Shown here: positions 2,977 to 22,221 of the stretch, one piece after another
Position numbering within the stretch: the stretch's first letter is position 1
Layout: the number at the start of each line of letters is the position of its first letter
Virus record (IMG/VR): IMGVR_UViG_3300012924_000006
Coordinates: 1 to 22,221 of that record
DNA: 22,221 nucleotides
Strand: one strand, 5' to 3'
From: a virus
Notes under the pieces: generated by a model
Databases searched by the model: none
What the model was told of the DNA's origin: nothing
The model's input: the letters and a program-made list of their open reading frames with translations, nothing else
Program-made: the position numbers and the translations under genes

Positions 2977-4013
2977 TAGATAGCTCTCAGTCTGCTACGT
3001 CTTCCGTAATCCAGTCGGACATTCTTACGCAGCTCTGACAGACCCTTACCTGAAGACTCTCGCATGTTGTCTCCTGTACCCACAGTACGTGCGTAAGCTG
3101 ACTGTCCTTGCATGATGGTATTCAGAGCCTCTGCGATAGCCAGTTGACGAACAGGACCAGGGAATGCGAAACGCTCTACAGCGTCTCCTGACGTGTGTGA
3201 GGCAGTGGTTGACCCATTGATACCTCTGACTACTGTGAGGCTGCGAGGAGCCCATACAGAGGCCGTCGTGTGTGCAGCCAGGACAGTACCGTCATAGGCT
3301 CTCTGTACCGTAGCCGTTGTACCTGCTACGTCAAGCACAAGCATTCTCTCAGAATCCACAAGAATGGTCTCTCCTGGATTCAGGTTTCCTGATGTCAGTC
3401 CTGTAAGGGTTACAGCATTGTTAGCGGCCGTAAGAGATACGTCATCAAGAGTATCCACCATGGCCTTATTGCTTACGTTAATCCATTCTGTACCAATACG
3501 GATCATATCTCCCACGCCAACCTGAGACGAATCGTCAATTGGAATAGCAGTTACCGAGCTGTTGACAGTGGCAGTAATCGTTGTTGCAGCATCCCAGATA
3601 TTCTGGTAACCCCAAGTTCCTGCCACTACTGTCTGTCTCTGATGAGTAGCCTCAGCGTCAAAGTTAGCAGTAGAAGCAAGGTCAATCTCAATGCGATTGA
3701 AGGGTGGTCCCTCATTCACTGGCTCAAGGAAGTAATCGTTCGTTACGATAGTCGTTCCCCCAGAAGTCACTGAGGTAGCCGAGATCAACTGAGCAGGCTC
3801 ATCGATCCATTGTCTGTATGTAGAAGATCGACCACCATCAGGAAAGTCGAAGTATCTGGTTGTGATAGTAGGATAGAAGACTCTTCGTGTAAGGTTCTCT
3901 ACGCTACGTGTAGCTGCTTCTACAGCACGGTCAATGACACGGTCCATTCGAGTAGCTGTCTTGATGTCGAGAGATTCCTTTACGTCCTCTCTTGTGCAAT
4001 AAGTGATTCCCAT
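2976..4013 (-). CDS. Head-tail adaptor (gp6-like connector) enlarged by an internal insertion, ~345 aa
   Basis: N-terminus ITYCTREDVKESL... is typical of gp6-like adaptors. The ATG at 4013 is preceded by GAGGGAG ttccaa; the track start at 4028 is a TTG inside that RBS. The central ~150 aa carry two copies of a G(D/E).I.(I/V)..E.(I/M).V motif, the second followed by V.RA.DGT..A.H. Confidence 0.6.
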   Translation of the reverse strand: MGITYCTREDVKESLDIKTATRMDRVIDRAVEAATRSVENLTRRVFYPTITTRYFDFPDGGRSSTYRQWIDEPAQLISATSVTSGGTTIVTNDYFLEPVNEGPPFNRIEIDLASTANFDAEATHQRQTVVAGTWGYQNIWDAATTITATVNSSVTAIPIDDSSQVGVGDMIRIGTEWINVSNKAMVDTLDDVSLTAANNAVTLTGLTSGNLNPGETILVDSERMLVLDVAGTTATVQRAYDGTVLAAHTTASVWAPRSLTVVRGINGSTTASHTSGDAVERFAFPGPVRQLAIAEALNTIMQGQSAYARTVGTGDNMRESSGKGLSELRKNVRLDYGRRSRLRAI

Positions 4014-4046
4014 TTGGAACTCCCTCAATTAGTCGTTATGTATATT

Positions 4047-4211
4047 CTACAGGAAGTATTGCCAGCCATCAAAAGGACAATACAACTCGCCATTGGGACC
4101 AGTCAGTAGTGTAATACCATCATTAGGACAATCGATAGGAAGGGTAGTCTCCCAGTCGGCTTGTTCCTGTTCGGCCTCTTGATAGATAGAGATAATAGTC
4201 CAGTAGCCCAT
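4047..4211 (-). CDS. Micro-ORF, 54 aa, CPNDG...CPFDG (half zinc-ribbon-like), not in ORF track
   Basis: Hand translation: MGYWTIISIYQEAEQEQADWETTLPIDCPNDGITLLTGPNGELYCPFDGWQYFL. Strong RBS TAAGGAG aaagcta ATG. Fills an otherwise empty 250-nt gap in a tightly packed operon. Confidence 0.5.
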   Translation of the reverse strand: MGYWTIISIYQEAEQEQADWETTLPIDCPNDGITLLTGPNGELYCPFDGWQYFL

Positions 4212-4230
4212 TAGCTTTCTCCTTATACGA

Positions 4231-4272
4231 GTAAAGGCCGTACCGCATATTGATATACGATACGGCCTTTAC
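4231..4272 (-). terminator. Hairpin after ORF 4281..4739 (12-bp stem GTAAAGGCCGTA / TACGGCCTTTAC, 18-nt loop)
   Basis: Perfect inverted repeat 4231-4242 / 4261-4272, beginning 8 nt after the stop codon. No U-tract follows on the minus strand, so it may be an attenuator or stability element rather than a full terminator. Confidence 0.45.
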
Positions 4273-4280
4273 GAATTGGA

Positions 4281-4739
4281 TTAGGCAGCTACAAGAGTAG
4301 CGCCATCTGTCAGAGGAATCCATGTCACGTTAAACGTGATAGCTCCATCTGCGGACAAAGCTCCTACGAACTCAATCTGTCCTGTGGTTACCACTGTGTC
4401 AAGACGTACTTGTCCACCACCAAGGAAGGCAGGGGCTACAGTAGTTCCATGAGTCAGACCAAGAGTAGATCCTACAGAAACATCGGTGGCACCAAGAGCT
4501 GTAGCCGTAACTAGAGTCGTAGTGTCACCAGCAGTAGGATTCTGCTGTAGAGCATATGTACCAGTTGCGTTGGTAAGCGCAGTAGTTACCAGGCCATAGA
4601 CGCTGGTAATCATTACTTCGCCACCAGCAATAGTGAAGAGCGGAGTCGTAGGGTTACCGGAGATAGCTCCAGTAGCCTTGGATGCCGGACGTCCTAGTGC
4701 GATGTCTCTTACCTGAGAACCCTGAATCATTACAGTCAT
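4281..4739 (-). CDS. Unknown Gly/Thr/Ala-rich protein, 152 aa (probable virion, head-associated)
   Basis: Strong RBS AAGGAG cctgac ATG. Sits between the capsid gene and the adaptor. Beta-rich composition. No family recognised. Confidence 0.6.
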   Translation of the reverse strand: MTVMIQGSQVRDIALGRPASKATGAISGNPTTPLFTIAGGEVMITSVYGLVTTALTNATGTYALQQNPTAGDTTTLVTATALGATDVSVGSTLGLTHGTTVAPAFLGGGQVRLDTVVTTGQIEFVGALSADGAITFNVTWIPLTDGATLVAA

Positions 4740-4749
4740 GTCAGGCTCC

Positions 4750-5175
4750 TTATACGATCAGAGATGGTAGGTTGGCAGGTGTGCGCTGTGGGTGAAGCTT
4801 AGTCACAATAGCTGTAACCGTACCTGTAGAGGTAGATGCACAGCTTACGAAGGTCTTGCCATCGGATAGCTGCTCAGCATTGATAGTGATAGCGACACAG
4901 TCAGCGGATGCTACATAAGCAGATCCTACAGCCTGAGTAACCTTGGTCCAAGCTCCGCCAATACCGTTAGATGTGTATACATCAGTGATCTTGGCAAGTA
5001 CAGCAGAACCAGATCCACCAGCAACGGCTGCTTCACTGACTGTGTAGGTGTCTCCACCAGACTTGTAACCAATGAAAGTAACGCATTCTCCAGCCTTCAA
5101 GTTAACGAAGACAGCATCCGCTACCTGTACTACATTGAAATCACGCCCTACGGCGGTTCCATTTGTTCCGGCCAT
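4750..5175 (-). CDS. Unknown protein, 141 aa, immediately downstream of the major capsid gene (possible decoration or cement protein)
   Basis: Very strong RBS AAGGAGG ccatt ATG. Position and beta-rich composition only. Confidence 0.6.
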   Translation of the reverse strand: MAGTNGTAVGRDFNVVQVADAVFVNLKAGECVTFIGYKSGGDTYTVSEAAVAGGSGSAVLAKITDVYTSNGIGGAWTKVTQAVGSAYVASADCVAITINAEQLSDGKTFVSCASTSTGTVTAIVTKLHPQRTPANLPSLIV

Positions 5176-5219
5176 AATGGCCTCCTTGTCTATTCTTAAT
5201 AGGGGGTTTATTGCCTATT

Positions 5220-5257
5220 AGAAAAGAAGGGAATAGGGTTTGAATGCTATTCCCTTC
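5220..5257 (-). terminator. Rho-independent terminator/attenuator directly after the major capsid gene
   Basis: Minus strand reads GAAGGGAATAG cattcaaacc CTATTCCCTTC TTTTCT. The 11-bp perfect stem is 5226-5236 / 5247-5257 with a 10-nt loop and a following T-run, starting 11 nt after the MCP stop. Confidence 0.7.
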
Positions 5258-5268
5258 TCGACTAATTC

Positions 5269-6591
5269 TTAGCGAGCACCAAGCTTAACAACTGGGCTAA
5301 GCGCTGGTCCATTGTTCTTAGGTGTGATTGCACTGTTCAGCCACAGCTTACCATCCACACGAGAGATTACCTTGAAGGCAGTCTCGTCAGTCTGGAACTT
5401 GAAGTGAGGAGAAGAAGTGGCAGTCATCATCTGACGATCACCGATAAGGTAGTACTTGAGGTCAACGAAGGTAAGGTCACCAGCGTCTCCCAGCTTAGGA
5501 GCCTTCTCAGTGAAGATTACTGGACGGCCAAGGATCGTCATAGGAGGACCCTGTACACCGTTGTTCAGCCATACAGCAGATCCACCAGTACCAACAGACA
5601 GAGCCATTGTTGCAAGCTCAGGGAAGGTATCAGGAGAAGCAAGCCATACAGCAGATCCCAGAGAACCAGGAAGCATACGGGCATACATCTTTACGACGTT
5701 CTCCCATACGATAGTGTCGTTTGGCTGTCCGCTTTCCTTGGTAACAGATACACCAGCGTTAGCATTGTAAAGACCCTCTGGCTGTCCAACGCCATTACCG
5801 TTAAGGAATGCGTCGTCCTCATAGAATGCCAGTGCGGCAGGGAATGAAGACTGAAGGAATGCCTCGAAAGCAATACCGTCTGCAAGAAGCTCGTTAGGAA
5901 CCTCTGTGTAGGCAGTCAGCTTGTGAGCGTCCAGTACAGTACGTGCGAATGTAGGGTTAGAAGCGGTAAGCGCTCCACTCTCCTCAGTCCAGTAAGCGGT
6001 GATTCCACCGAATACAGAGCTGACGTTGGAAGTAGAGTCAACAGATGGAAGCAGGGTACGAGGAGAACTCATAGGAATAACTGTTGCACGTGGACGAACA
6101 ACACCATTCTCAAGGCTCAGGCTTAGCAGCTCAGAGCGCATTGTCTCAGGTACAAGGAATCCACCAGAGGCTCCGTCGTTGGAGCTTACAGCGTTACGTA
6201 CGCGCTGTAGCTTAGCCATAACGTCTGGAGTACGCTCAGTGTTGTGATGAATGGTCTGGAAGTAGTCAGCTACTCCCTCGAACTCACTCTCAATCTTTGC
6301 TCCTACAGCCTTTGCGTTGAAGACAGTGGCGTTTCCACCATTACCCGGACGGAAGTTAAGAGCGTCCTTGGTAAGCTTCTGCTCGTTCTTGTTAAGAGTA
6401 TCGAAGAGAATGGACTTTACCTGTGTGTCGATCTGCTCAGTAATGGTCTCGTCCTTGGTACGGACAGCAGTTCCATATGCCTTGACAGCCTCTCCTAGCT
6501 GACCGTTCTGGACCAGCTCACCTGCCTTGGCAGAATCGGACAGCATGTCAAGAAGCTCAGACTGAGTAGTCGGAATTACTAGCTTAGACAT
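5269..6591 (-). CDS. Major capsid protein, HK97 fold, with N-terminal delta (scaffold-like) domain, 440 aa
   Basis: SGGFLVPE motif, FLNGNGVGQPEG, ILGRPVIFTEK and overall HK97-family pattern. Helical N-terminal ~120 aa. Follows a ClpP-like protease. RBS AAGGAGG gtttta ATG. Confidence 0.95.
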   Translation of the reverse strand: MSKLVIPTTQSELLDMLSDSAKAGELVQNGQLGEAVKAYGTAVRTKDETITEQIDTQVKSILFDTLNKNEQKLTKDALNFRPGNGGNATVFNAKAVGAKIESEFEGVADYFQTIHHNTERTPDVMAKLQRVRNAVSSNDGASGGFLVPETMRSELLSLSLENGVVRPRATVIPMSSPRTLLPSVDSTSNVSSVFGGITAYWTEESGALTASNPTFARTVLDAHKLTAYTEVPNELLADGIAFEAFLQSSFPAALAFYEDDAFLNGNGVGQPEGLYNANAGVSVTKESGQPNDTIVWENVVKMYARMLPGSLGSAVWLASPDTFPELATMALSVGTGGSAVWLNNGVQGPPMTILGRPVIFTEKAPKLGDAGDLTFVDLKYYLIGDRQMMTATSSPHFKFQTDETAFKVISRVDGKLWLNSAITPKNNGPALSPVVKLGAR

Positions 6592-7480
6592 TAAAACCCT
6601 CCTTTAGGGCTCGAATTAGGGATTCAGTATCAATAGCGTCCGAGATCTGAATCCCGAACTTCTTGGCTGCCTTCTTGATTTTGGTCTTGATAGTAGCCAA
6701 TTGTTCTGAAGAATACTTTGATGCATTCTCAGACTTGTTGATGTACGACCATGCGGAACGTACATGCTCTTCGTTATCTACAGGATAGCGCTTTTGTCCA
6801 TCCTCTTGATAACCCGGATCAGCGTACTCGACATCTCCATAAGGTTCTGTCTTTGGCTTATCCGCATTCTTTGGTGCAGGAGCAAAGGAGCGACCTGCGT
6901 AGTTGAAGATCTGTAGATCCGATACATTACGGAATGCCTTCTTAGAGGTAACAACCTCATCAGCCAGTCCTACAGCTACAGCTTCCTCTGCTGAGTACCA
7001 GGTCTCGTCTCTCATAGCGTTACGCCATGTACCGATATCTCCACCAGCACGCTCCGCATACACAGAGGCGATGTTGTTAGAGGCACGGTCGAGAGTATCA
7101 ACCATACGTACGAGATCAGCAGCATTGCCTTGTAGCTGTACATGACCATCATGGATCATGAACTCAGCATTCTTAGCCATACGTACCTTGTCTCCTGCCA
7201 TTGCGATGACAGAAGCAATAGACGCAGCAAGCGCATCTACAGTTACCGTTACTTCAGCGGGATGTTCCTTCAATGCCTGGTAAATAGCGAATCCCTGGAA
7301 TACCTCACCGCCTACTGAATTGATATGTACATCTAGTTTATCAGACTTAATGGCATTCAGTTCATTCATAAAATCTTGTGCCGAAATGCCGTACCCACCC
7401 ACCTCATCATAGAGATAGATGGAAGGAGTGGCATCAGCCTTGTTGGTAATCTCATACCACTTGGTCATCTGGTTCTCCAT
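6584..7480 (-). CDS. Prohead (head maturation) serine protease, ClpP/S14-like, with conserved C-terminal extension, 298 aa
   Basis: INSVGGEVFQGFAIYQAL...AASIASVIAMAGD...MIHDGH is a ClpP-like catalytic core. The C-terminal YADPGYQEDGQKRYP...HVRSAWSYI segment recurs in phage protease/scaffold proteins. An alternative start at 7468 (MTKWYEI) has GGAG 6 nt upstream. Confidence 0.9.
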   Translation of the reverse strand: MENQMTKWYEITNKADATPSIYLYDEVGGYGISAQDFMNELNAIKSDKLDVHINSVGGEVFQGFAIYQALKEHPAEVTVTVDALAASIASVIAMAGDKVRMAKNAEFMIHDGHVQLQGNAADLVRMVDTLDRASNNIASVYAERAGGDIGTWRNAMRDETWYSAEEAVAVGLADEVVTSKKAFRNVSDLQIFNYAGRSFAPAPKNADKPKTEPYGDVEYADPGYQEDGQKRYPVDNEEHVRSAWSYINKSENASKYSSEQLATIKTKIKKAAKKFGIQISDAIDTESLIRALKEGFNV

Positions 7481-8759
7481 TCGCAGTGGTAGTAGGAGGA
7501 ATAGGAGGGTTGGGCAGATTGTTCTTCTGCTCCAATTGTACAGGCTTATTGTGTCCCATTGGTGGAAGTTCTACAACTTCAAGAACAGCAACAGGATCAT
7601 AGCCTGCATCAACCAGTGTTTTAGCCGCATTAGCTCTGGCAACCAGAGATGCATCCTCTAGTTCACGGTCATCTGGTTCAGGAGAATCATAATCGAATTC
7701 CACTCCCATTCCTGATGCACCGAATAGAGGAAGCAGATCGTTATTCAATGCCTGCTTAATACGTTCCAGTCTTGGCTTCAGCAGTGATCGTGCATACATA
7801 GTCTCGGAAGCCACAGCATTAGCACGGTTAACATCAGTCACATCACCAAGCTTGAACTTAGGGAAGCCGAATGCCTGAAGGATCTGAGTAGCAGATACCT
7901 GTCGTAGCTCAGCGAACTGAAGATCACGCATGTTGATAGAGTATGGTACCCACTTCATTCCACCTTCCAGGATGGAAGCCACGTGAGCGTTCTGTGTACC
8001 CTTGTGCTGCTCTCTCCAACGGAGCATAAGCTCTTGGAAGTGCTCGTCACTCAGTCTGTCTGGTACTTCAATAACACCACCAGGGTTGGCTGAGTTCTTG
8101 AAGAAGTTACGATTCCATTCAGCAGCAAGACGAGATGAATCCAGATCGGTAAGGATAGATGATACTGGTCCTACTCCTCTGTACAGGTTAAGAGGATCAG
8201 GCATTCTCAGCCCGATTACATCTTCTTTGTCCAGTGGAATCTTCATACCGTCTGGTGTTGTGTACACATATCCAGTAAGGAACTCAGTAGTATCCACAGA
8301 AATGGATACACGGTCTGGTCTCAGAGGCCATAGCTGAAGAGGCATTGCAGCAAAGTCTGATGATGCTACCTGTAGCCAAGCTTCACCAGTCAGATCAATG
8401 TGCTGCTGAATTACTTCAATGAATTCCTGTCGTGTCATAAAGGGATTAGGCTTATTCAGTAGCTTTAGTGCAGGATGATCAATAACTTCTACCCTGTCTT
8501 CTGTCTTACTATTGCCGTCAGTCTTACGATATAGCTTCCAACAGACTGCTGATGTGTCATTAGCCAGTCTATTCACCACAGCAAAGAGTGTACCCACTGA
8601 GGAGTACATGTCCAGAGGAGTAGTTGTAGAGCCCTTCTTGGGCATCTGGAACAGCTCTGTCATAGGGGAGTTCTGTGTCTGTGGTACTGGTGAAGTATTT
8701 CTCAGAGCCTTACTAACGGCGCTGATAAGGCTCAATCGGTTCGCCATCTGGCTCTCCAT
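7452..8759 (-). CDS. Portal protein (HK97-type), 435 aa
   Basis: Size, position between terminase and protease, and the typical HK97-family portal pattern. An alternative start at 8747 (MANRLS) has GGAG 6 nt upstream. Confidence 0.9.
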   Translation of the reverse strand: MESQMANRLSLISAVSKALRNTSPVPQTQNSPMTELFQMPKKGSTTTPLDMYSSVGTLFAVVNRLANDTSAVCWKLYRKTDGNSKTEDRVEVIDHPALKLLNKPNPFMTRQEFIEVIQQHIDLTGEAWLQVASSDFAAMPLQLWPLRPDRVSISVDTTEFLTGYVYTTPDGMKIPLDKEDVIGLRMPDPLNLYRGVGPVSSILTDLDSSRLAAEWNRNFFKNSANPGGVIEVPDRLSDEHFQELMLRWREQHKGTQNAHVASILEGGMKWVPYSINMRDLQFAELRQVSATQILQAFGFPKFKLGDVTDVNRANAVASETMYARSLLKPRLERIKQALNNDLLPLFGASGMGVEFDYDSPEPDDRELEDASLVARANAAKTLVDAGYDPVAVLEVVELPPMGHNKPVQLEQKNNLPNPPIPPTTTANGEPDDQVV

Positions 8760-8973: not shown

Positions 8974-10272
8974 CTAGTATGTAATGTGTCTAATACGCGC
9001 ATGTGCACGTAGATCAAGATGAGCAACCATGTATCTCATAGCATCCATACCATGGTCATTGGTCTTCTTGGGTGCATCCTTATCTGTATTCCAGATGTAA
9101 CCAACGATCTCTTCCAGTGAAGAAGCTGGTTGCTTTGCTGAATCCAATAGCGGATCTCTGCGTACCAGTGCATCTCTACAGAAGTAAAGGCGGGGCTTTC
9201 CGTCTGGTTGTACTCTGAGGCGTTCAGCTACGGCCTGAATACCATCGGACACAGTCTTCTTTGCTGCGACAGTACCCATACCAAGATGACGTTCAAGGGT
9301 AGCTCTGTCCTCTGCGTCATGGTCACAGATGATATAACGAGGCTTAGGCTCTCTTTCTCTTCCCTGTGCAAGGATAGTCTTGGCATGATCTTCTACCAAG
9401 CCCTTGGTTGCATACAGCTCACGGTACAGATACAGTCTTCCATCATGATCCTCTGCCCACCACTGACATACGAATGGATTAGTGAATCCAAAGTCGATGG
9501 ACAGATAACGTGTCCAGTCATGAGGTGGCTCATCAATGTGATTGAAGATATGTACTGAAGGATCGTAGCCTTCATATACCAGTCCTTCTGCTGCTGCCCA
9601 GATTCCCTTTCTAAGACGTTCATATCTTACACCTGTGAGATTGTCCAGAGCTTGCATATACGCAGCTCCTACAGCCGTATGAAGCCCTGTACGAGGGTCA
9701 AACAGTAGAGGGTTGTCCTCGTGTCTCGAAGGAATAGACTTAGTCTGTCCTCTGTCACATCTGACCTTTAGCCAATGAGTAGGCATATCCGGATTACAGT
9801 CAGCGATCAATTGCTGATAAGGAATCTTTCCATTACGAAGACGAGTAGTCAGTGACTCCCAGTCATTCTCTGTCAATTCAGTAGCTTCCTGTGCATAAAC
9901 AATATCGTATTCAGTGGACATTACCTTTAGAGCTTTATCCATTCCACCCAGTACAATACGGCTGCCATTCTTATAGCGATAAGATGCAGGTTCCCTGGTA
10001 GATCCACCGAAGAATACTACCTCACCTGTTGCCAAGTGTTCCTTGGCCACATGAGATTCGTATGTCTGAATACCAGAGCCAGAGAGGGACACGAGTGTCT
10101 TACGTACCATGAGAATACGTGCGTCAGGATACTTCATGGCCAGTAGGTGTAGCTTCTCGATACATGCTCTGGACTTACCCGTACCTGCTGCGCCCTCATA
10201 GAGTACTTCAGGATCACGGGAATAGAATAGTTCCACTGCATTGCCAAATGGTTGATAATGATGAATAGCCAT
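8974..10272 (-). CDS. terL: Terminase large subunit, 432 aa
   Basis: Walker A EGAAGTGKSRA near the N-terminus, a Walker B-like IVYAQEATE, and a C-terminal nuclease-type region with acidic motifs (LSIDFGF, IICDHD). Position upstream of the portal. Confidence 0.93.
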   Translation of the reverse strand: MAIHHYQPFGNAVELFYSRDPEVLYEGAAGTGKSRACIEKLHLLAMKYPDARILMVRKTLVSLSGSGIQTYESHVAKEHLATGEVVFFGGSTREPASYRYKNGSRIVLGGMDKALKVMSTEYDIVYAQEATELTENDWESLTTRLRNGKIPYQQLIADCNPDMPTHWLKVRCDRGQTKSIPSRHEDNPLLFDPRTGLHTAVGAAYMQALDNLTGVRYERLRKGIWAAAEGLVYEGYDPSVHIFNHIDEPPHDWTRYLSIDFGFTNPFVCQWWAEDHDGRLYLYRELYATKGLVEDHAKTILAQGREREPKPRYIICDHDAEDRATLERHLGMGTVAAKKTVSDGIQAVAERLRVQPDGKPRLYFCRDALVRRDPLLDSAKQPASSLEEIVGYIWNTDKDAPKKTNDHGMDAMRYMVAHLDLRAHARIRHITY

Positions 10273-10923: not shown

Positions 10924-11091
10924 ATGGTTATTGTTCCGGCAACAGTGCTACGACAGAAGATGGCTGACTACCTCAAGCTTGTCCAGGAGGGAGAAGAAGT
11001 AGTAGTCCATAAGTACGGTAAGGCTATTGCTAAGCTCGTACTAGTAGAAGAGCCTTCACTCCGTGGGCCCGAAAATCCCTCTGGGGAATAG
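10924..11091 (+). CDS. Phd/YefM-fold protein, 55 aa, N-terminal (DNA-binding/dimerisation) domain only, with no adjacent toxin gene
   Basis: Hand translation MVIVPATVLRQKMADYLKLVQEGEEVVVHKYGKAIAKLVLVEEPSLRGPENPSGE. It parallels P1 Phd INFRTARGNLSEVLNNVEAGEEVEITRRGREPAVIV. Strong RBS GAGGAG agagaa ATG. Below the ORF-track cutoff. Confidence 0.65.
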   Translation: MVIVPATVLRQKMADYLKLVQEGEEVVVHKYGKAIAKLVLVEEPSLRGPENPSGE

Positions 11092-11756: not shown

Positions 11757-12002
11757 ATGCTAGAAGTATTCGCAGATGCCACGTTGCCAAGCGGAGCCAA
11801 GATTCTATGGATGTACATCATGCTTTACGGAGGTGATGGTGCCTACACTGCTACGCACGAAGAACTAGCCGCAGGAACAGGACTAGGAAGATCTTCTGTT
11901 ATCCGCTGCGTCAAGGTTCTTGAGGCCAAGGAACTGGTAACGGTACAAAGAGCATCAGGTGGCGCTACATCTAACATCTACTTTGCCCACCTACCCAAGT
12001 AA
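11757..12002 (+). CDS. Winged-helix DNA-binding protein, 81 aa (HTH_36/replication-organiser-like)
   Basis: Pattern LPSGAKILWMYI....THEELAAGTGLGRSSVIRCVKVLEAKELVTVQR...NIY. RBS AGGAGA tacc ATG. Paralogous to the N-terminus of the next ORF. Confidence 0.65.
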   Translation: MLEVFADATLPSGAKILWMYIMLYGGDGAYTATHEELAAGTGLGRSSVIRCVKVLEAKELVTVQRASGGATSNIYFAHLPK

Positions 12003-12061
12003 AAAGCGGCCCTCCCCCCAAGGAAAGACCGCTTAATCACACCAACGAAAGAAGCACTAAC

Positions 12062-13291
12062 ATGTCTAGACGTACAGCACCTACTTCACCCTCTAATTAT
12101 ACCTCGGATGCCGCCAAGGATACTAGCGTGAAGTACAAGATGTTTCATGCCGTGGCTCTCAGCGAACTGGCTGTGGGTAACAAGGCACTACTGCACTTCC
12201 TGATTGTATGCTGGAACCAGGAGACTGGCAAGCTGAATCCAGGAGTAGCAAAACTGTCAGCAGCCAGAGGGATTGAGAACGCCAAGAACTTTAAGGGCGT
12301 CGACAAGTACCTGCCAGGACTTGTTACTGTACACAAGAGTCCGGGCTTTGGCAACTCCTACTCTCTGAACATTCAGATGATTCTTGAACTCCCTCCAATG
12401 AAGGTAGCCACAGACAAGTACCGCAATAACCCTTCTGTGGAAGGGGTCAACAGTAGTAACTCAACTACCCCCCTTCACAGGAAGGGTACCCCCCCTTCAC
12501 AGGAAGGGTACTACCCCCCTTCACAGGAAGGGTACTACCCCCCTTCACAGGAAGGGTCTGAAAGAAAAGAAGAAAGTAAAGATAGAAAGAAAAACGAAAA
12601 CGGCATTGACCAGGGAGTTACTTATGTAGACCAGGAAGAAGTCTTGGCAGATACTAAGTCTTCCCTGGTAGAAGAAGTTCTTTCCTCTGGTGAATCTAAG
12701 AGAGTCTTGACTGAAGAGATTGAGATCTTGGGAATCCTTGGTCCTTCCCTGGTAGACGAAGTCACCGCTAACGCGGCTCCTTCTGTTTTTCCTCTGGTGA
12801 AGACTAATGTCCTTGATGATCTTGAAGACCTAGTAGTTTCCTCTGGTAGTCAGGGAGTCAACGAAGTTGATCTTGACAAGGTAGAGGTTACTCCTGGCAA
12901 GACTAAGAAGACACGTGCTTACTCATGGGTAGTAAAGAAGAAGGACGAGCTTTCTAATGTCAACGAAGTTGATCTTGGTAAGTCGGATGCCACAGATGCC
13001 TCTCTAAGCGCCACAGGCGCAGAGGATGAGGCGAAGGTCAAGGAGATCCCAGCAAAGCCTGAGAGACCCCTTTATGTTGATCCTAACCGTAGTCCTTACG
13101 ATGACGACGATGACTACGAGGATCGTAGAGGAAGAGCCTTCAAGGCTTACGTCAAGTACACGATGCCTGGGTACACACAGAGACTCTCTGACTGGGAGAA
13201 GAAGTACGGTAACCAGCCACTACTACCTATGTCACCAGGAGCACAGGCTCTTCAGGCTGGTCACACGAAGATTCAGAAGCACAACTACTAA
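12062..13291 (+). CDS. Putative replication initiator: N-terminal winged helix, repeat-rich acidic linker containing the iteron array, small C-terminal domain, 409 aa
   Basis: The N-terminal LAVGNKALLHFLIV....AKLSAARGIE....LPGLVTVHK...NSYSLN parallels ORF 11757..12002. The internal PPSQEGYY repeats coincide with DNA dyads. Architecture is analogous to lambda O. Confidence 0.6.
   Translation: MSRRTAPTSPSNYTSDAAKDTSVKYKMFHAVALSELAVGNKALLHFLIVCWNQETGKLNPGVAKLSAARGIENAKNFKGVDKYLPGLVTVHKSPGFGNSYSLNIQMILELPPMKVATDKYRNNPSVEGVNSSNSTTPLHRKGTPPSQEGYYPPSQEGYYPPSQEGSERKEESKDRKKNENGIDQGVTYVDQEEVLADTKSSLVEEVLSSGESKRVLTEEIEILGILGPSLVDEVTANAAPSVFPLVKTNVLDDLEDLVVSSGSQGVNEVDLDKVEVTPGKTKKTRAYSWVVKKKDELSNVNEVDLGKSDATDASLSATGAEDEAKVKEIPAKPERPLYVDPNRSPYDDDDDYEDRRGRAFKAYVKYTMPGYTQRLSDWEKKYGNQPLLPMSPGAQALQAGHTKIQKHNY
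12430..12557. repeat. Iteron array: five 16-bp dyads CCCTTC-N4-GAAGGG, four of them in 22-24-bp tandem units (candidate origin)
   Basis: Dyads at 12430-12445 (spacer TGTG) and at 12471-12486, 12493-12508, 12517-12532 and 12541-12556 (spacer ACAG). Tandem unit is ACCCCCC(C)TTCACAGGAAGGGTA. Confidence 0.75.
12559..12600. other. Purine-strand AT-rich tract adjacent to the iterons (candidate DNA unwinding element)
   Basis: gaaagaaaagaagaaagtaaagatagaaagaaaaacgaaaac has 11 G/C of 42 by my count, and nearly all purines are on the plus strand. Confidence 0.55.
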
Positions 13292-15904: not shown

Positions 15905-18900
15905 TTATGTGTAAGTAATTCCTAGAGCAGTATAGCTCTTCTTGTACAATTCTACCGTTTTACCTGTGACATGTGTCTTTACCACGCCATTTACTGAACG
16001 GGTCACATTCAATGTCTGATTACTCAAGGCGTTTGTCTGTAGGTTATCCCATGAAAAGACCACAGGAAGGTTGGAAGTAGCAGAAGAAGTAACACTTCGT
16101 ACTCCCACTTGACCTGATGCGGTCAGTGCTGAATCAGTAGCAGAGATAGTCCAGCTACCTGGCTCTGAGTAGCCCGTTCTCCAAGCCTTGGCCTTGAGTG
16201 TTGTACCAATACCCTGGATACGAACAGTGAACTGACGAGCCGCAGCATGAACTTCATCGAGTACGAAAGTACCCAGTACGCCATCCACACCAGCTACACG
16301 CTTACGCAGGGTAAGAGTAGCCACCGCAGTAGTAGCGAACTCCAGTCTTGCGTAGTACATGTTATTGGTATCGGCCCATCTTCCTACAGCATAGGCGAAG
16401 AGGCTTCCTCCAACTGCTAGCTTGTCTGTTGCCACGGTTACCGTAACGTCGAAGTCAGCGTTATTGTATGGAGTCGCCACAGTACTCTGCATAGCCGTAT
16501 TGGCTACTGTCTGAGCATGAGTACCCACACCAGAGCCTACATCGTAGTCAGCAGCGGTTCCACCTGTGTTGGTGTATGCCTGTCCTGTATCCGCAGATCC
16601 CCAGGTATTGACTGAGGTACGGGCAAAGGTATCTGTTACCTGAGCAACAGACGTACAGGTCATTCTCTCCCCGCCAACAACGATATCGAAGTCAACACCA
16701 CTCTGAATCCAGTATGCCTTGTCAGTTGTAGTGCTGACATCAATAGCAGTCTCAGTGGTATCAAGAGCCTCAGCCGTTACAGATACGAGACTGTCAGCCT
16801 TACTACTGGTTGTAGCTGTAGTAATCATTGTCTGTCCCAGATCAAAGACAGATCCGGGAATGGTGTTGAAGACAATGCTGTGCTGGAACTGATCGAATAT
16901 TTCAGTGTATCCAGCAATGATCAGACTCATGTCATCAGGCTGTAGGCGTAGTGGCACATCTTCCAGTGCGATCTTATGACCAATGTCAGCCTTAAGGAAG
17001 CGGTAGATCATATCGGAATCTGCACTGATACGAGGATTCTCCAGAGCAACAGTGATCGTATCTACTCGTAGATCGTCATTCGTACCCACGAAGACTCTCT
17101 GTGTGGTCTGGTACGGAAGGTCTCTGTCTCTGTAGAGGGAGATAGTCTTCTGATCTCTGTATCTTCCAATTCCATCAGGAGGAGAGAGAACAGAACGCTT
17201 ACCACTTGTCTTGACGTATCTGCCCTGAGTACCGAACTCCTTCTCTACAGTGATGTCATTGATACTTCCACGATTATCACGGTAAGGAGAGAAGTTACCA
17301 GAGAGATCATTACCCTCGTAGCTCAATGTCAGCATAGCTGGCTGATTGGCCATAGAGGCAGACGTACGATAACCCATACCTACCACCTGACGTGGCTCGT
17401 ATACGTATCCCATATCCACATCCTGTACTTCCTGAAGAAGAGCTGGATAAGACGTAGCTCCCTGAATACCCATCTCAGGACCACCACTACCGATGTTGTA
17501 GTTGATGATCTCTTCTTCCCATGTCAGACGCTCTGCTCTACGTGCTGCTGGCTCTCGTCTCCACGCATCCATAGGAGTAGTGAACAGACCATCGTACATT
17601 GCGGAACCGTAAGGATAACCATCTGAGTACACACCGTCAAAGGCTGCCACTTGTCCAAGATACACACCATTCATCAGCTTGTTAGGGCTAAGGCGTACCT
17701 CGTAGATTGATCCTGTAACGGTATCAGCTCCAGCCACAAGTGCCCCAGTGTCTACCCATGATCTGTTTGACTGGTTCTCATAGAGAAGGTTGTAGCCTGC
17801 CAGCCATCCTGTGATAGCGATACGGTTGTGCTTGCGATTCATAGGTACAGACAGAGAACCTGAGGTACCTACCTGAACACCAGCAGCATCATGCACGGTA
17901 AGAACCAGAGTGTCTGTTGCTGAATAGGTAAGACGAACAATACGGTCAAGTCCTGTCTGACGTACCTCAGCAATACGTGCGCCATTGGTAATACCATCGG
18001 GAGCATAGATGATAAACTCTGCTACCCAGGAACCTGTTACCGCCCCTGTTACAGGGAAGATAATCATGGAGCCTGTATTGAACTTAGCGGTGCTCTTGGA
18101 GCCGAAGAAAGTGGTATCCGAATTGAATTCCACTGTCCCTGTGACAATTCCAGGACGCTGGTCAACTACACCTGAACCTGACTGTTCTGCCGGATCGGCA
18201 TCAGTATCCACACCTGGAAGAGCATTGTCCTCCATAGGCCAGTACGCTACAGGATGAATAGGTCCAAAGACTCCTCCACCTGCTTCACCAGGAGTGAAGG
18301 CAAGTACTCCAGCAGCAGCCGTGTAGTTACGGTACAGAGATGAGTTCTCCTCTGGAGATCCCTGCTGTACGCGGTTCAGCAATCCTGTTGATTCCACATC
18401 CACGTACATGTAGTCACGCTTGTTATCCGCTGGCTGAGGCCAAGAAGTGATCTCTCCGTGATGACGGTACTTACGGTTGTGACAAAGTACGTAGCCATAC
18501 GCAACCCACAGATGGCTCTGAGAGTCGCTGAAAGAACGGGTACCAGTAGTCTGTGCCGTGAAGTCACAGGAGGCGATTACAGAGCCACTGAGGCTTGTTC
18601 TCATCTCCATTCCATAGATACGTCCACGTGTAGGATGCCAGATAGGTTCGTTTACAGTGATAGAACTAGGATCTCCAGGATCATTAGTAGTAACGTAAGA
18701 CTTGTTCTGAATGAAGTCTTCGTGATACTGAGCCTTGTTGTCAGAGTAGTACGTGGAAGGGAAGCCATCAAGGATAGGCTCAGTCATTCCTACAGTCAGA
18801 GCAGTCAGGTTATCTGAGTTGACTGACGTAGTACCTGCTGTAACAACAGAAGAACCAAGCTGAGTCCATGAACCAGAAATAGTATCCGCTGTGTAGAAGG

Positions 18901-20203
18901 TCACGGTATGTCCAGAAGCACCATTGTTGACGTCCAGTCCTACACGTAGAGCCTGACGGATACGAGTACCCACAGCCTGAGTAGCCATGACATCATGAGC
19001 AGCATTGAAACCTCCTACGCTTTCCACCCAGTAGAGGTGTGGGAATCCCTTGAAGTCGATGTAGAATGTCCATCCTGCTGAGGTAACACCCAGTCCTCCA
19101 CCAGGAAGCAGGGAGTGCTTGGCAGCAAGAACCTGATGCATCTTCCAAGTCTCTGGCTCCACATCTACTCTTACGTCCAGGTCTCCTGCTGTATTCAGAG
19201 CAGCAGCGTGAGAGGTACGGAAACGGGATACATCCTTGGCTACGTTATTGGCCACATCGTAGTATCCAAGAGTTTCCATAGCCACAGTTCCGTAAGCCTT
19301 TGAGATACGGCAGGGAACAGATAGATTCAGATATGGGTAATAGGTACTTGTAGGGTTCAGCACAGAATACTTTGCATCCTGATTATCCAGACGGAAGGTA
19401 GCTACAGAAGGATTGACCTGTCCTCCCTGTGTAGATGTTCCTCTGGTTACCTGTACGCCATTCTCGTACTTGACGTCACCGGTAACATCAGTCCATGTTC
19501 CATTGATCTCAAGCTCCACTACGTTACCTGTAGAAGCCCATGATTCATTAGCAGGTACGGCATCTGCTACGAAGAACTGCCACACCATGGAATTGGTGAT
19601 GGAGTTGGTAGGGTTGGCAACCCATGAACTTGCTACACCAGCAGTAGAGAACTCAGTAGCACCTGACTGTCCACGGTACTGAGTAAGACCAGAGTCTCCA
19701 GACACTACATCGAATACTTCAGTCGCGCCAGTCCATGTAACTGTGTCGGAGGTGGTGTCTCTCCAGGTATAAACAGAGTAACCGATACCATCACGAGAAG
19801 GAGCAATAGGCATAAAGCCTGACTCCCAGGGATCTGTAGATCCTCCACCAGTGAAGGACCATGTGTAGGAATCCAGTCCACCATGACCGGAGAACGTAGT
19901 AATGGACACACCGATGGTTCCTCCACCAGCACCAGGCTGGAAGGACCATACATAGGTGGAAGGCTCTGAAGCTCCTGCTGTCTTGATGTAGGCACGGCTA
20001 CGCAAGGCTGTTGAGTCATCATCAAAAGCCAGAAGTGTCCATCCTGTTGGAGCTGTGAATGTGTCGGCCGTATATCCATGTGTGACAGCAATCATCAGAT
20101 GCCCATTTAGGGTACCTGTTGGCTTGTTGACGGTTACGGAAATGGCATCGGTATTATTGGGGCTAACGGCTGTGGCGGACGCCACTACTGCAACCATAGT
20201 CAT
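15905..20203 (-). CDS. Giant minor tail protein, 1432 aa: Dit-like (distal tail) core split by large lectin-like insertions, plus N- and C-terminal extra domains
   Basis: First gene after the TMP. Dit-like segments: aa ~225-305 (ELEINGTWTDVTGDV...VTRGTS...ATFRLDNQDAKYSVLNP...VPCRI) and aa ~890-1125 (MLTLSYEGNDL...RDNRGSINDITVEKEFG...IIAGYTEIFDQ..HSIVF). LamG-like AYWPMED region at aa ~650-860. The start is probably the ATG at 20197, since AAGGAG is only 1 nt from the 20203 ATG. Confidence 0.75.
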   Translation of the reverse strand: MTMVAVVASATAVSPNNTDAISVTVNKPTGTLNGHLMIAVTHGYTADTFTAPTGWTLLAFDDDSTALRSRAYIKTAGASEPSTYVWSFQPGAGGGTIGVSITTFSGHGGLDSYTWSFTGGGSTDPWESGFMPIAPSRDGIGYSVYTWRDTTSDTVTWTGATEVFDVVSGDSGLTQYRGQSGATEFSTAGVASSWVANPTNSITNSMVWQFFVADAVPANESWASTGNVVELEINGTWTDVTGDVKYENGVQVTRGTSTQGGQVNPSVATFRLDNQDAKYSVLNPTSTYYPYLNLSVPCRISKAYGTVAMETLGYYDVANNVAKDVSRFRTSHAAALNTAGDLDVRVDVEPETWKMHQVLAAKHSLLPGGGLGVTSAGWTFYIDFKGFPHLYWVESVGGFNAAHDVMATQAVGTRIRQALRVGLDVNNGASGHTVTFYTADTISGSWTQLGSSVVTAGTTSVNSDNLTALTVGMTEPILDGFPSTYYSDNKAQYHEDFIQNKSYVTTNDPGDPSSITVNEPIWHPTRGRIYGMEMRTSLSGSVIASCDFTAQTTGTRSFSDSQSHLWVAYGYVLCHNRKYRHHGEITSWPQPADNKRDYMYVDVESTGLLNRVQQGSPEENSSLYRNYTAAAGVLAFTPGEAGGGVFGPIHPVAYWPMEDNALPGVDTDADPAEQSGSGVVDQRPGIVTGTVEFNSDTTFFGSKSTAKFNTGSMIIFPVTGAVTGSWVAEFIIYAPDGITNGARIAEVRQTGLDRIVRLTYSATDTLVLTVHDAAGVQVGTSGSLSVPMNRKHNRIAITGWLAGYNLLYENQSNRSWVDTGALVAGADTVTGSIYEVRLSPNKLMNGVYLGQVAAFDGVYSDGYPYGSAMYDGLFTTPMDAWRREPAARRAERLTWEEEIINYNIGSGGPEMGIQGATSYPALLQEVQDVDMGYVYEPRQVVGMGYRTSASMANQPAMLTLSYEGNDLSGNFSPYRDNRGSINDITVEKEFGTQGRYVKTSGKRSVLSPPDGIGRYRDQKTISLYRDRDLPYQTTQRVFVGTNDDLRVDTITVALENPRISADSDMIYRFLKADIGHKIALEDVPLRLQPDDMSLIIAGYTEIFDQFQHSIVFNTIPGSVFDLGQTMITTATTSSKADSLVSVTAEALDTTETAIDVSTTTDKAYWIQSGVDFDIVVGGERMTCTSVAQVTDTFARTSVNTWGSADTGQAYTNTGGTAADYDVGSGVGTHAQTVANTAMQSTVATPYNNADFDVTVTVATDKLAVGGSLFAYAVGRWADTNNMYYARLEFATTAVATLTLRKRVAGVDGVLGTFVLDEVHAAARQFTVRIQGIGTTLKAKAWRTGYSEPGSWTISATDSALTASGQVGVRSVTSSATSNLPVVFSWDNLQTNALSNQTLNVTRSVNGVVKTHVTGKTVELYKKSYTALGITYT

Positions 20204-20271: not shown

Positions 20272-21972
20272 TTATGTTCCTAGCACTACCTGTACGTTTC
20301 CTCCACGCTTACGAATGGTATTGCGGAAAGGATCGATAAGCATCTCAGCAAGCTTCTCATTACCGAGTTGAATAGTGATGTGCTGCATACCAGAACCTCC
20401 ACCTCTCTGTCCCATGATCGTACGAGAAGAGTCATTGCTTCGTACTCGGGAACCTGGTGGCATATCAACGATCTCAGGACCATTCTCACCAACAAGTACC
20501 TGGTTGGATCTAGGACCACCGTTAGCGGCAGCACCAATAATTCCACCATGAGCAAATCCCAGCATACTCAGTGCCTTCTTGGCACCTGATACGAATACCT
20601 TCACACCGATGGAGACTGTCTTACCCACAAGGTTTCTAATCTTGGAGATGACGTTACCTACTGCGTTAATAGCTGAGGAAGCTCCTCGTACGCCAATAGA
20701 GACTGTCTTACCAATGAAGTTACGGATCTTATTGATAGCGCCACCAACAGCGCTTACAACGCCTCCTGCACCTCTCTGAAGGATTGATACTGTCTTACTG
20801 TTGAACTTGCGAATCCAATTGATAGCTGAAGTTACCCAGCCAATTACTGTAGAAGCACCCTTCTGGAAGAACGATACAGTCTTGTTCTTGACATTCTTTA
20901 CCCAGTTGATAATTCCCTTTGCCCAGTCAATAACAGCTTGGGCACCCTTCTGGACAAAGTTGATTGTCTTTCCCACGATACGTGCGATCCATAGAACAAT
21001 CTGCTTAATCTGATCTACAGCGGCAGGAGCCTTACTGATAATCAGGGTAAGGAACTGTGCGATATAGCTGATTACCTTAGCCAGTAGTGGATACATGAAC
21101 TGAATGTACTTTACATAACCCTGTAGAAGTACCAGGAAGATAGGTCCAACAGCCTTACCAAGCTCTAGCAGAGCGGCACCCAGTTGCTTGAAGGAAGGCC
21201 ATAGCTGTGCGAACACGGCGGACAGAGCAGTGATGACCTTGATACCCACAGGAAGCAGGGAGAACAGTGCAGAGATGACACCAACGAAAGCATCGACAGT
21301 ATCCTTCTGCTGGAACTGCTTACCAAGATCTCCCATGGCTGCACCCAGATCTCCAAGAAGCTTGGTGAATACTGGACCCAAAGCCTTGATAAGACCGTTG
21401 AATGCAGTAGCCATAGGCTTAAGAGCTGGAGCGAATGCCTTGAATCCCTTCATTACAGCGTCAAAGAACGACTGCAATGCAGGAGCCATATCGGTAAAGA
21501 TACTCTTCAGCATCGGTCCTGCGGCCTTGGCAAAGTCTCCTACTGTCTTGGCCACATGAACAAGCACAGGTTCCAGAGGCTTAGCAGCCTCAGTCAGTGT
21601 CTTACCAATCGTATCCTTCATCTTACCGAAGGCGTTCTGTACTACCTTGGCCTTCATAGCAGCCATGATACCGATACCGGCAAGGGCTCCGCCGACACCA
21701 AGGATGATAGCTCCACCCATAAGAGTAGCCAGCATAGGTGCAAGGACACCTACCAGCCCTGTGATACCCGCAAGAACATAAGGGTTGGAACCTGCGGAGC
21801 TTAGGGATTGTCCTAGTCCCTGAGAGATAGAGCTACCAGCACTGGCAAAGGCAGATCCCATAGAAGAAACCATGCTGCTGACCGCTCCACCGATAGAGCT
21901 TCGCAGAGATCTCAGAGAGCCAGCGATACCAGATGTGGCAGCACGAATGTGAACGGTTACTGTACTCGCCAT
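20272..21972 (-). CDS. Tape measure protein, 566 aa
   Basis: Position after the G/GT chaperone. Ser/Ala/Gly-rich N-terminus with hydrophobic segments, long helical middle with 29-aa tandem repeats, and a C-terminal LVGENGPEIV motif typical of TMPs. RBS AAAGGAG ccagta ATG. Confidence 0.9.
   Translation of the reverse strand: MASTVTVHIRAATSGIAGSLRSLRSSIGGAVSSMVSSMGSAFASAGSSISQGLGQSLSSAGSNPYVLAGITGLVGVLAPMLATLMGGAIILGVGGALAGIGIMAAMKAKVVQNAFGKMKDTIGKTLTEAAKPLEPVLVHVAKTVGDFAKAAGPMLKSIFTDMAPALQSFFDAVMKGFKAFAPALKPMATAFNGLIKALGPVFTKLLGDLGAAMGDLGKQFQQKDTVDAFVGVISALFSLLPVGIKVITALSAVFAQLWPSFKQLGAALLELGKAVGPIFLVLLQGYVKYIQFMYPLLAKVISYIAQFLTLIISKAPAAVDQIKQIVLWIARIVGKTINFVQKGAQAVIDWAKGIINWVKNVKNKTVSFFQKGASTVIGWVTSAINWIRKFNSKTVSILQRGAGGVVSAVGGAINKIRNFIGKTVSIGVRGASSAINAVGNVISKIRNLVGKTVSIGVKVFVSGAKKALSMLGFAHGGIIGAAANGGPRSNQVLVGENGPEIVDMPPGSRVRSNDSSRTIMGQRGGGSGMQHITIQLGNEKLAEMLIDPFRNTIRKRGGNVQVVLGT
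20575..20970 (-). repeat. In-frame tandem repeats in the TMP: about 4.5 copies of a 29-aa (87-nt) unit starting KT(I/V)(N/S)...
   Basis: Repeat-initial Lys at residues 335, 364, 393, 422 and 451 (KTINFVQKGAQAVIDWAKGIINWVKNVKN / KTVSFFQKGASTVIGWVTSAINWIRKFNS / KTVSILQRGAGGVVSAVGGAINKIRNFIG / KTVSIGVRGASSAINAVGNVISKIRNLVG / KTVSIGVKVF...). Confidence 0.85.
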
Positions 21973-21987
21973 TACTGGCTCCTTTCG

Positions 21988-22221
21988 TTAGTTGTAATCT
22001 TCGTATTCATCGTAGGACTCAGAACCCTCTGGCGTATCATCCTTACGTCCTCGGTTGTACACATGCAAGAGCTGGATTACCGAAGCATCCATGTTCTCAG
22101 CTACTTCAGGTGTGCAGTGGAACCACTGGCAGAGGTTGATAATCATCTCAGCCTCTACCAGTTCGTCCGGCTTTGTTACAACAGTTCCATCTGAAGTGAC
22201 GGCATTGGGGAAATCTCGCCA
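21988..22221 (-). CDS. -1 frame extension of the tail chaperone (gpT-like part of the G-T fusion); continues across the circular junction to the slippery site at 135-141
   Basis: Hand translation of the -1 frame: ...RLDLWRDFPNAVTSDGTVVTKPDELVEAEMIINLCQWFHCTPEVAENMDASVIQLLHVYNRGRKDDTPEGSESYDEYEDYN, then stop TAA at 21988-21990. No stop and no own start/RBS. Predicted fusion is ~196 aa (115 + 81). Confidence 0.75.
   Translation of the reverse strand, partial: WRDFPNAVTSDGTVVTKPDELVEAEMIINLCQWFHCTPEVAENMDASVIQLLHVYNRGRKDDTPEGSESYDEYEDYN
22099..22221. repeat. Terminal overlap copy 2 (identical to 1-123)
   Basis: See copy 1. Confidence 0.95.

Follow-up and report, generated by a model that had tools for sequence, protein, structure and literature searches.

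Where does replication start in a phage genome of 22 kb, and which protein starts it? The question is raised by IMG/VR virus record IMGVR_UViG_3300012924_000006, of which positions 1 to 22,221 were analyzed; this whole stretch of 22,221 nt is referred to as the window. The first and last 123 nt of the window (1-123 and 22099-22221) form an exact direct repeat, and the window is therefore a closed circular assembly, representing a complete phage genome of 22,098 bp. A sequence-only reading of this DNA had drawn attention to a gene that contains five dyad-symmetric repeats followed by a purine-rich AT tract, and had likened the arrangement to the replication origin of phage lambda. The analysis described here followed up that proposal with database searches, comparison of related loci and structure prediction. 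We find that the dyads and the AT tract are likely to constitute a replication origin that is bound by the N-terminal domain of the protein encoded by the same gene, called the initiator below.

Dyad iterons and an AT-rich tract inside one gene

The initiator gene contains the region coding for an N-terminal domain (N-domain), the dyad repeats or iterons, the AT tract, a second repeat family and the region coding for a C-terminal domain. The features on which the argument is built are as follows.

12062..13291, + strand: initiator gene, 409 amino acids (aa) from the ATG at 12062; public gene callers start it at the ATG at 12140, giving 383 aa
12140..12424, + strand: N-terminal winged-helix domain, putative iteron binder, residues 1-95 of the 383-aa product
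12430..12445, no strand assigned: iteron 1, CCCTTCTGTGGAAGGG, translated NPSVEG, 41 bp upstream of the tandem array
12471..12486, no strand assigned: iteron 2, CCCTTCACAGGAAGGG, read as ACC CCC CTT CAC AGG AAG GGT, that is TPLHRKG, in frame 1 as against frame 2 for the other four
12493..12508, no strand assigned: iteron 3, CCCTTCACAGGAAGGG, read as CCC CCT TCA CAG GAA GGG, that is PPSQEG
12517..12532, no strand assigned: iteron 4, CCCTTCACAGGAAGGG, translated PPSQEG
12541..12556, no strand assigned: iteron 5, CCCTTCACAGGAAGGG, translated PPSQEG, the last repeat before the AT tract
12559..12600, no strand assigned: AT-rich tract, putative DNA unwinding element, with 10 G/C in 42 nt and 38/42 purines on the + strand

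The dyad CCCTTC-N4-GAAGGG occurs at 12430, 12471, 12493, 12517 and 12541, all within 127 bp (12430-12556) of the initiator gene and exactly where it had been reported. These five copies are unique in the genome: when both strands of the window were searched with up to two mismatches, no other match was found. Dinucleotide shuffles gave an expectation of 0.66 ± 0.83 dyads, and five or more were reached in none of 100 shuffles. Iterons 2-5 form a tandem array (12464-12557; period 24, 4.0 copies, 94% matches) with start-to-start spacings of 22, 24 and 24 nt, in agreement with the earlier description. Because one of these spacings is 22 nt, the copy at 12471 lies in a different reading frame. The sequence-only reading had contrasted this copy, translated TPLHRKG, with four copies of a PPSQEG peptide; this holds for 12471 and for three of the others, but iteron 1 reads NPSVEG, in the same frame as iterons 3-5. 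The spacer ACAG is common to the four tandem copies only, that of iteron 1 being TGTG.

The 42-nt tract behind iteron 5 was likewise found at its reported location, and its nearly pure purine composition and Lys/Glu-rich translation (SERKEESKDRKKNEN) were borne out; its G/C count is 10, not 11 as stated. Positions 12561-12600 are both the lowest-GC 40-mer of the window (22.5%, versus a mean of 48.1%) and its most purine-biased 40-mer (92.5%). The tract also displays a 12-nt periodicity, with 2.7 copies of the unit GAAAGAAAAGATA.

Recurrence of the arrangement in ten lineages

No match was found in 50,697 GenBank phage records, either with the region (blastn) or with the 409-aa protein (tblastn), and a scan of IMG/VR with the window initiator returned no relatives. 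A word-indexed search of 5.8 billion proteins recovered the initiator itself and two relatives (42% and 38% identity). A profile search of 1.84 billion cluster representatives then gave 69 proteins, 58 of them at E <= 1e-10, and the size of the family is about 69 clusters at 50% identity. A central family member had no match among 72,556 plasmids. The DNA was read for ten distinct lineages.

Window (= L004): this phage
L001 (= L002, L007, L008): 22-kb contigs from JGI metagenomes and a GenBank whole-genome shotgun (WGS) contig (LLBY01)
L003: 3.5-kb contig, ENA
L005: IMG/VR contig
L006: IMG/VR contig
L009: metagenome contig
L010: metagenome contig
L012: Logan assembly
L013: Nocardioides flavus NZ_BNAD01000010.1, 1-8021, a lower-GC island
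L017: NCBI assembly GCA_040651075.1, with the family gene about 2 kb downstream of a phage integrase gene

All ten lineages carry 3-5 sites of the form CCCTKC-N4-GMAGGG directly after the N-domain, usually 21 or 24 nt apart within the array. Read on the opposite strand, GMAGGG becomes CCCTKC, which makes this consensus a true dyad, and as a sequence pattern it fits binding by a dimer. In L006, perfect dyads also occur outside the initiator gene, at 859-874 (CCCTTCTCTAGAAGGG) and 3006-3021 (CCCTTCCAGAGAAGGG), where they flank the replication module and may serve as autoregulatory or looping sites. The GC content of L013 is 47-57% in the neighbourhood of the family gene and 65-73% toward the far end of the locus; together with the integrase neighbour in L017, this lower-GC island indicates that the family also resides on integrated elements. 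As a separate observation, many short family members have a distal copy of the dyad about 50-100 codons further downstream (for example at 2243 in L013 and at 1408 in L010).

The AT tract that the sequence-only reading had placed directly behind the iterons recurs in the relatives. The lowest-GC 40-mer of the gene begins 2-14 nt past the last repeat in 10 of 11 loci (the ten lineages and the sibling phage L016 described below), and in six of those loci it is also the minimum of the whole locus. A 12-nt tandem repeat makes up the AT tract of L012 (AATAACTCAAAG, 3.8 copies). In seven fetched loci (L001, L003, L005, L010, L011, L013 and L017) the 8-mer ATAGTTCA recurs at 12-nt spacing and is found in the AT tract only (L001 7380-7399, L005 1640-1659, L013 2092-2135, L017 4470-4501, and others), an arrangement reminiscent of the 13-mer repeats in the unwinding elements of bacteria; the window tract has its own 12-nt unit in place of this 8-mer. 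The encoded peptides are quite different, Lys/Glu-rich in the window versus Ser/Asn-rich in the relatives. In the loci compared, the conserved property of the tract is its AT-richness, and the purine bias is peculiar to the window phage.

Selection on the DNA of the repeats

The sequence-only reading had argued that selection acts on the DNA of the repeats rather than on the peptide. We examined this by a codon test in which motif instances were chosen by their peptide alone, P-[SAT]-x-[EA]-[GD], giving 35 instances in the ten lineages, with the rest of the same genes as background.

Pro: CCT in 35/35 motif codons, 81/174 in the background
Glu: GAA in 21/21 motif codons, 118/247 in the background
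Ala: GCA in 14/14 motif codons, 69/256 in the background
Gly: GGG in 27/28 motif codons, 34/152 in the background

The differences between motif and background are pronounced, with Fisher p values from 5e-7 to 4e-14. Moreover, the codon that precedes the motif has C as its third base in 35 of 35 instances, though the residue it encodes varies (N, P, H, T, S, G, R, A). The synonymous base within the 4-bp spacer, which serves as an internal control, varies freely (T 19, A 12, C 7). When the window was compared with L001, codons were identical at 19 of 20 conserved residues within the repeats versus 83 of 133 elsewhere (p = 0.002). The reading in more than one frame goes further in L012, where the iteron CCCCCCTTCACRCGMAGGG is translated in all three frames of one gene (1250-1432), as PPSHAG, TPLHAQG and PPFTRRV.

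What is conserved in the dyads is the half-site rather than the pairing of the two arms. At dyad positions 5 and 12 the bases change independently of each other, and a complementary pair is present in just 17 of 38 copies; both arms nonetheless fit the half-site CCCTKC. Variants with GCAGAC break the dyad pairs 1-16 and 2-15 while each arm is still near CCCTKC, and in L001 all four full-consensus copies contain a G-A mismatch. With half-site synonymous bases fixed in ten lineages, three frames used in L012 and perfect copies outside the gene in L006, the earlier argument is upheld, and the repeats are very probably protein-binding DNA sites under selection.

The initiator protein and its family

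The 409-aa window initiator has no significant Pfam or PHROG match, and its domains were assigned through the family. The N-domain of about 95 residues is common to the family and contains a nearly invariant motif, RGI-x-x-x-KNFKG-x-x-x-YLPGLVT. An AF2 model from an alignment of 26 sequences (pLDDT 93.9, pTM 0.83) displays a helix-turn-helix with a beta-hairpin wing, and the top matches in a fold search of the PDB are all winged helices (CodY, MarR, ArsR, AspA, TubR, the plasmid Rep-DNA complex 5kbj and RepE54). Against BFVD, a set of predicted viral structures, it matched phage helix-turn-helix (HTH) proteins including a putative replication protein O, at E ~2e-4. A sequence search of the PDB with the N-domain profile gave only matches at E > 0.1, to winged-helix proteins.

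Pfam HTH_36 (PF13730) was matched by 22 of 26 family N-domains (best E 5.8e-8), and at E <= 0.01 it was the only Pfam family matched; the lambda O family, Phage_rep_O in Pfam, was not among the matches. PHROG families described as "replication initiation O-like" were matched by 6 of the 26 (best E 4e-5), and in tblastn the central family member gave weak matches to the N-termini of annotated replication protein O genes of Pseudomonas and E. coli phages. The N-terminal winged helix that had been proposed earlier is thus corroborated by the model and by the matches of family members. The window N-domain would belong to the HTH_36-type winged helices through homology, and not by a direct profile match.

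Downstream of the N-domain the protein is largely disordered according to prediction. A full-length AlphaFold model from 3 sequences (pLDDT 38.9) was used for disorder and secondary structure only; residues 84-304 (~220) are predicted to be disordered, and three helices are predicted with low confidence for residues 324-378. The array had been placed in a linker between an N- and a C-terminal domain. It does lie between the two, but at the start of the long linker rather than in its middle, with ~170 predicted-disordered residues separating the AT tract from the C-terminal domain.

13037..13288, + strand: C-terminal helical domain, putative recruiter of host machinery, with the motif PxKPxxPxYxxPxRxPY...WExKYG

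This C-terminal domain has no Pfam match. It is conserved in the family proteins P0002 and P0003 and also occurs fused to unrelated HTH_36 or MarR N-domains (P0028, P0058, P0062); since it recurs with unrelated N-domains, it is a separate module. In many short family members (among proteins P0009-P0059) the C-terminal domain of the window initiator is missing, and its place is taken by an acidic tail whose last residue is Trp (..EEW, ..DDW, ..ELDW, ..KEW). Such tails recall the acidic aromatic C-terminal tails of the type found in single-stranded DNA-binding protein (SSB), which dock onto replication proteins.

Exchange of N-domain and repeats in a sibling phage

A sibling phage of 22.8 kb, L016, shares the gene order of the window and has a terminase 76% identical to the window's. 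Its initiator (4001-5257) aligns with the window's from residue 152 onward only, at 34% identity, which is the stretch after the AT tract. In its upstream part the L016 initiator has another HTH_36 N-domain, and its array is made of four copies of another repeat, CATAGTGTCACCAGTGAACCTAT, with spacings of 48, 24 and 24; an AT-rich stretch again follows the array. The recombination boundary is at the AT tract, with linker and C-terminal domain kept. The alignment pattern therefore indicates that the DNA-binding domain and the repeats were exchanged as one unit. This swap, seen in sequence comparison, offers the strongest indirect support for recognition of the repeats by the N-domain.

A second repeat family beyond the AT tract

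12662..12849, no strand assigned: second repeat TCC(Y)CTGGTRR, five copies, at 12662, 12683, 12746, 12790 and 12839

Five of the six window matches of TCC(Y)CTGGTRR lie within 12662-12849; over the full length of the window, 0.28 matches would be expected. The exact 13-mer TTTCCTCTGGTGA is present at 12681 and 12788 and is found identically, on both strands, in relatives whose initiators are ~40% identical. In the window, copies of the repeat are translated in two frames, LSSGE versus FPLVK. Phages of 22 kb with the long linker, the C-terminal domain and a small winged-helix gene have the repeat, L016 included, and the short family members lack it. It possibly represents a second set of protein-binding sites beyond the AT tract. 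Together with the 12-nt periodicity of the AT tract, this repeat is new relative to the sequence-only reading. The stretch 12744-12790 (residues SLVDEVTANAAPS), which overlaps two of its copies, contains the most conserved nucleotides of the gene outside the N-domain and the iterons, with ~84% identity to the relatives with ~40%-identical initiators.

A separate winged-helix gene upstream

11757..12002, + strand: small winged-helix gene (81 aa), immediately upstream of the initiator gene and distinct from it; its ribosome-binding site, AGGAG, is strong

The earlier description had named genes 11757-13291 together, without separating this 81-aa winged-helix gene from the initiator proper. Its product matches Pfam HTH_36 (5.2e-6), better than the large protein of the window does, and the N-terminal regions of the PHROG families "replication initiation protein" and "DnaD-like helicase loader" (~1e-7). 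Homologues are located upstream of the initiator in L001, L003 and L016; in L012, which has iterons, no separate gene is called directly upstream. L005, L006 and L013 also have iterons and, with no gene calls available for these three, stand outside this comparison. BLASTP detected no similarity between the 81-aa protein and the N-domain of the large protein, and hence there is no evidence that they are recent paralogues. The 81-aa protein may be an accessory origin-binding protein or a regulator. Between the two genes, at 12003-12034, lies a 14-bp imperfect stem-loop (AAGCGGCCCTCCCCCCAAGGAAAGACCGCTT), terminator-like on the minus strand only, which could be an attenuator or a bidirectional terminator.

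Model of a probable origin

We consider it probable that 12430-12600, an element which probably extends to ~12850, is a theta-type origin embedded in the gene of its own initiator, a protein in which a long disordered linker joins an N-terminal winged helix to a small helical domain at the C-terminus. N-domain dimers would bind the five dyads, each consisting of two inverted CCCTKC half-sites 4 bp apart, and the spacing of 22-24 bp would separate neighbouring dyads by about two turns of the helix. Assembled on supercoiled DNA, the nucleoprotein complex would melt the adjacent 40-bp AT tract of 12-nt units, after which the replicative helicase and the primosome of the host would be brought in by the C-terminal domain. 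The gene's own transcription would run through the origin. With the origin placed in the part of the gene that codes for the disordered linker, the peptide could tolerate whatever the DNA signal dictates. Binding as dimers, melting of the AT tract and origin function are inferred by analogy with known origins, and recruitment of a host helicase by the C-terminal domain is speculative.

The sequence-only reading had also stated that the genome encodes no replication enzymes. Indeed, no polymerase, helicase, primase or helicase-loader family was matched by any ORF scanned with Pfam and PHROG on this complete genome. In the absence of a recognizable helicase, loader or primase, the orphan C-terminal domain becomes a candidate for a new way of capturing the host replication machinery. 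A more elaborate, bipartite arrangement can be envisaged, in which the AT tract is enclosed between initiator-bound CCCTKC dyads and TCC(Y)CTGGTRR sites bound by the 81-aa protein or a host protein, and the C-terminal domain recruits the helicase without any loader. We regard this arrangement as rather doubtful; if true, it would be a minimal, not yet described replication start for a 22-kb phage of probably actinobacterial hosts.

Alternative explanations

The dyads could be operators of a winged-helix protein acting in transcription, or could serve as a centromere in partition. Repressors typically bind dyads as winged-helix dimers, the fold matches of the N-domain include MarR, ArsR and CodY as well as the centromere binders AspA and TubR, and a perfect dyad ~190 nt upstream of the gene in L006 is compatible with autoregulation; plasmid iterons, too, commonly double in replication and autorepression. 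However, five sites lying 290-480 nt inside a coding region would be poorly placed for promoter control, and a scan with consensus promoters found no promoter-like site on the + strand near the array. No ORF scanned with Pfam and PHROG matched a partition-ATPase family, proteins related to the domain in sequence carry annotations as replication initiators, and the invariant coupling of the sites to an AT tract with 12-nt periodicity is an origin signature, so that an operator or centromere role in place of an origin appears improbable. An origin in which the iterons are bound by the 81-aa protein, with the large protein as a mere adaptor, would account for the better HTH_36 and replication-initiator N-terminal matches of the small protein in the window and for the conservation of its gene upstream of the initiator in the 22-kb group. 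Against this, L012 has iterons with no separate gene called directly upstream, and KNFKG, the recognition-helix motif of the large protein, hardly varies, and neither do the CCCT/AGGG cores of the sites. The iterons of L016 changed together with the N-domain of the large protein, and the small protein stayed homologous to those of L001 and L003; since it remains homologous across the swap, the exchange argues against it as the binder. We thus deem this division of labour decidedly improbable.

Two further explanations were weighed. A tandem repeat born by slippage might simply encode a proline-rich flexible linker (PPSQEGYY), selected as a peptide and without function in cis. The repeat does lie within the predicted disordered linker, (N/D)TPAVEG or PPSxEGYY peptide repeats occur across the family, and the frame is the same for most copies, which lie multiples of 3 nt apart. 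This is nevertheless highly improbable in view of the invariant synonymous positions of the half-sites, the constant C before the motif irrespective of the residue encoded, the identical DNA read in two frames in the window and three in L012, the perfect copies outside the gene in L006, a dyad symmetry that is meaningless for a peptide, and an AT minimum after the repeats that is encoded by quite different peptides. Alternatively, the palindromes could act as mRNA hairpins or DNA cruciforms in translational pausing, RNA stability or nuclease recognition, each window copy being able to form a 6-bp stem with a 4-nt loop, four of them in tandem. Compensatory variation, however, is not seen: positions 5 and 12 pair in fewer than half of the copies, the GCAGAC variants break two further pairs, and the G-A mismatch is present in every full-consensus copy of L001. 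The likelihood of this last explanation is close to nil.

Several results weigh against an origin bound by the initiator N-domain, which we still prefer. The N-domain of the window itself has no significant Pfam or PHROG match and owes its assignment to the family and the model. Its PDB fold matches all have E > 0.03 and are generic winged helices, a fold that serves repressors and centromere-binding proteins too, and the 81-aa winged-helix protein is a possible alternative binder in the window's clade. Our searches of GenBank phages and plasmids found no cultured phage or plasmid with the family. With no loader detected and a C-terminal domain without known relative, helicase loading is unexplained. 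Cumulative GC skew mostly falls across the genome and has no clear minimum at the region under study, thus giving no independent support, and a DnaA-box scan of the genome revealed no cluster. In the codon test, finally, the copies within one genome are not independent, and the effective sample is ~10 lineages, all ten of which agree.

Comparison with known origins

The anatomy of the element matches that of ori-lambda, as had been proposed. In lambda, four 18-bp iterons and a 38-bp AT-rich sequence are located in the middle of gene O, whose product binds as dimers; Stx phages (P27 and 933W among the lambdoid phages) have six iterons (PMC3349717, PMC7466680). The window shares with lambda and the lambdoid phages an origin in the initiator gene after the N-terminal DNA-binding domain, with dyad iterons (4-6 of 18-19 bp in lambdoid phages) followed by an AT tract (~38-40 bp in lambdoid phages), extra iterons that add residues to the protein, an initiator without ATPase domain, and an N-domain that forms one specificity module with the iterons, as displayed here by the L016 swap. 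In contrast to these similarities, relatedness to lambda O is at a generic winged-helix level (~30% identity, E 1e-2 to 3e-5 for the central family member), the iteron sequence and the C-terminal domain are unrelated, and no P-like or DnaC-like loader gene adjoins the initiator. The linker, with ~220 predicted-disordered residues and a second repeat family, is much longer than that of lambda O, and the probable hosts are actinobacteria, not enterobacteria. The earlier proposal of an origin inside the initiator gene therefore stands as far as the anatomy is concerned, but the protein belongs to a family other than that of lambda O, the P-like loader is missing, and the second repeat at 12662-12849 had been overlooked.

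A similar picture emerges for SPP1, in which oriL lies within gene 38 and consists of G38P-binding boxes and an AT-rich unwinding element (PMC5737612). Both systems have the origin in the initiator gene, repeated boxes with an adjacent AT-rich element and an initiator without AAA+ domain (PMC5737612). SPP1, however, encodes the helicase G40P, the loader G39P and the SSB G36P, none of which was detected in the window, and G38P belongs to pfam09524 (PMC5737612), whereas the window initiator family has no such Pfam or PHROG match.

Iteron theta plasmids (RepE, RepA, Pi) resemble the window in having sites about two helical turns apart, a winged-helix initiator and an AT-rich element of short repeats, and RepE54 and a staphylococcal Rep-DNA complex are among the fold matches of the N-domain. 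Their iterons are usually intergenic direct repeats bound by monomers with two winged-helix domains (WH1-WH2). The window differs in its single winged helix, its dyad sites and their position inside a gene, and has neither a DnaA-box cluster nor a plasmid homologue. Judged by sequence, the protein falls outside the lambda O family, and it is neither a plasmid Rep with two winged helices nor a relative of G38P.

What is known is the type of origin, with iterons and an unwinding element in the initiator gene; what is new is the initiator family, which is uncharacterised. The lambda solution of placing the origin in the linker of the initiator recurs here in an unrelated lineage, and the repeats are an unusually clean case of a DNA signal overriding the encoded peptide. 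The analysis provides a precise candidate origin and initiator for small uncultured ~22-kb soil phages and related integrated elements. Once a host is known, the short cassette of origin and initiator could serve as a replicon for genetic tools.

Genome context

The genes listed here were assigned by PHROG matches, with the exception of the small terminase, which is putative.

8974-10272, (-) strand: large terminase
7452-8759, (-) strand: portal
6584-7480, (-) strand: head protease
5269-6591, (-) strand: major head protein
1398-2129, (-) strand: major tail protein
20272-21972, (-) strand: tape measure
15905-20203, (-) strand: tail protein, 1432 aa
10290-10730: putative small terminase

To judge from the PHROG matches, the window is a small tailed phage. 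A pac site was considered as another function for the dyads and rejected, no link to the terminase having been found. The early region (~10.9-14.7 kb) runs rightward and is flanked by two leftward structural blocks. Within it, with no recognizable toxin gene adjoining, a 55-aa ORF (10924-11091) displays an N-terminal match to Phd/YefM antitoxins at E 2.3e-6, just under the Pfam cut-off. The closest cultured relative of the portal is that of Streptomyces phage Dagobah (48% identity). Although the window has a GC content of 48%, actinobacteria are the probable hosts.

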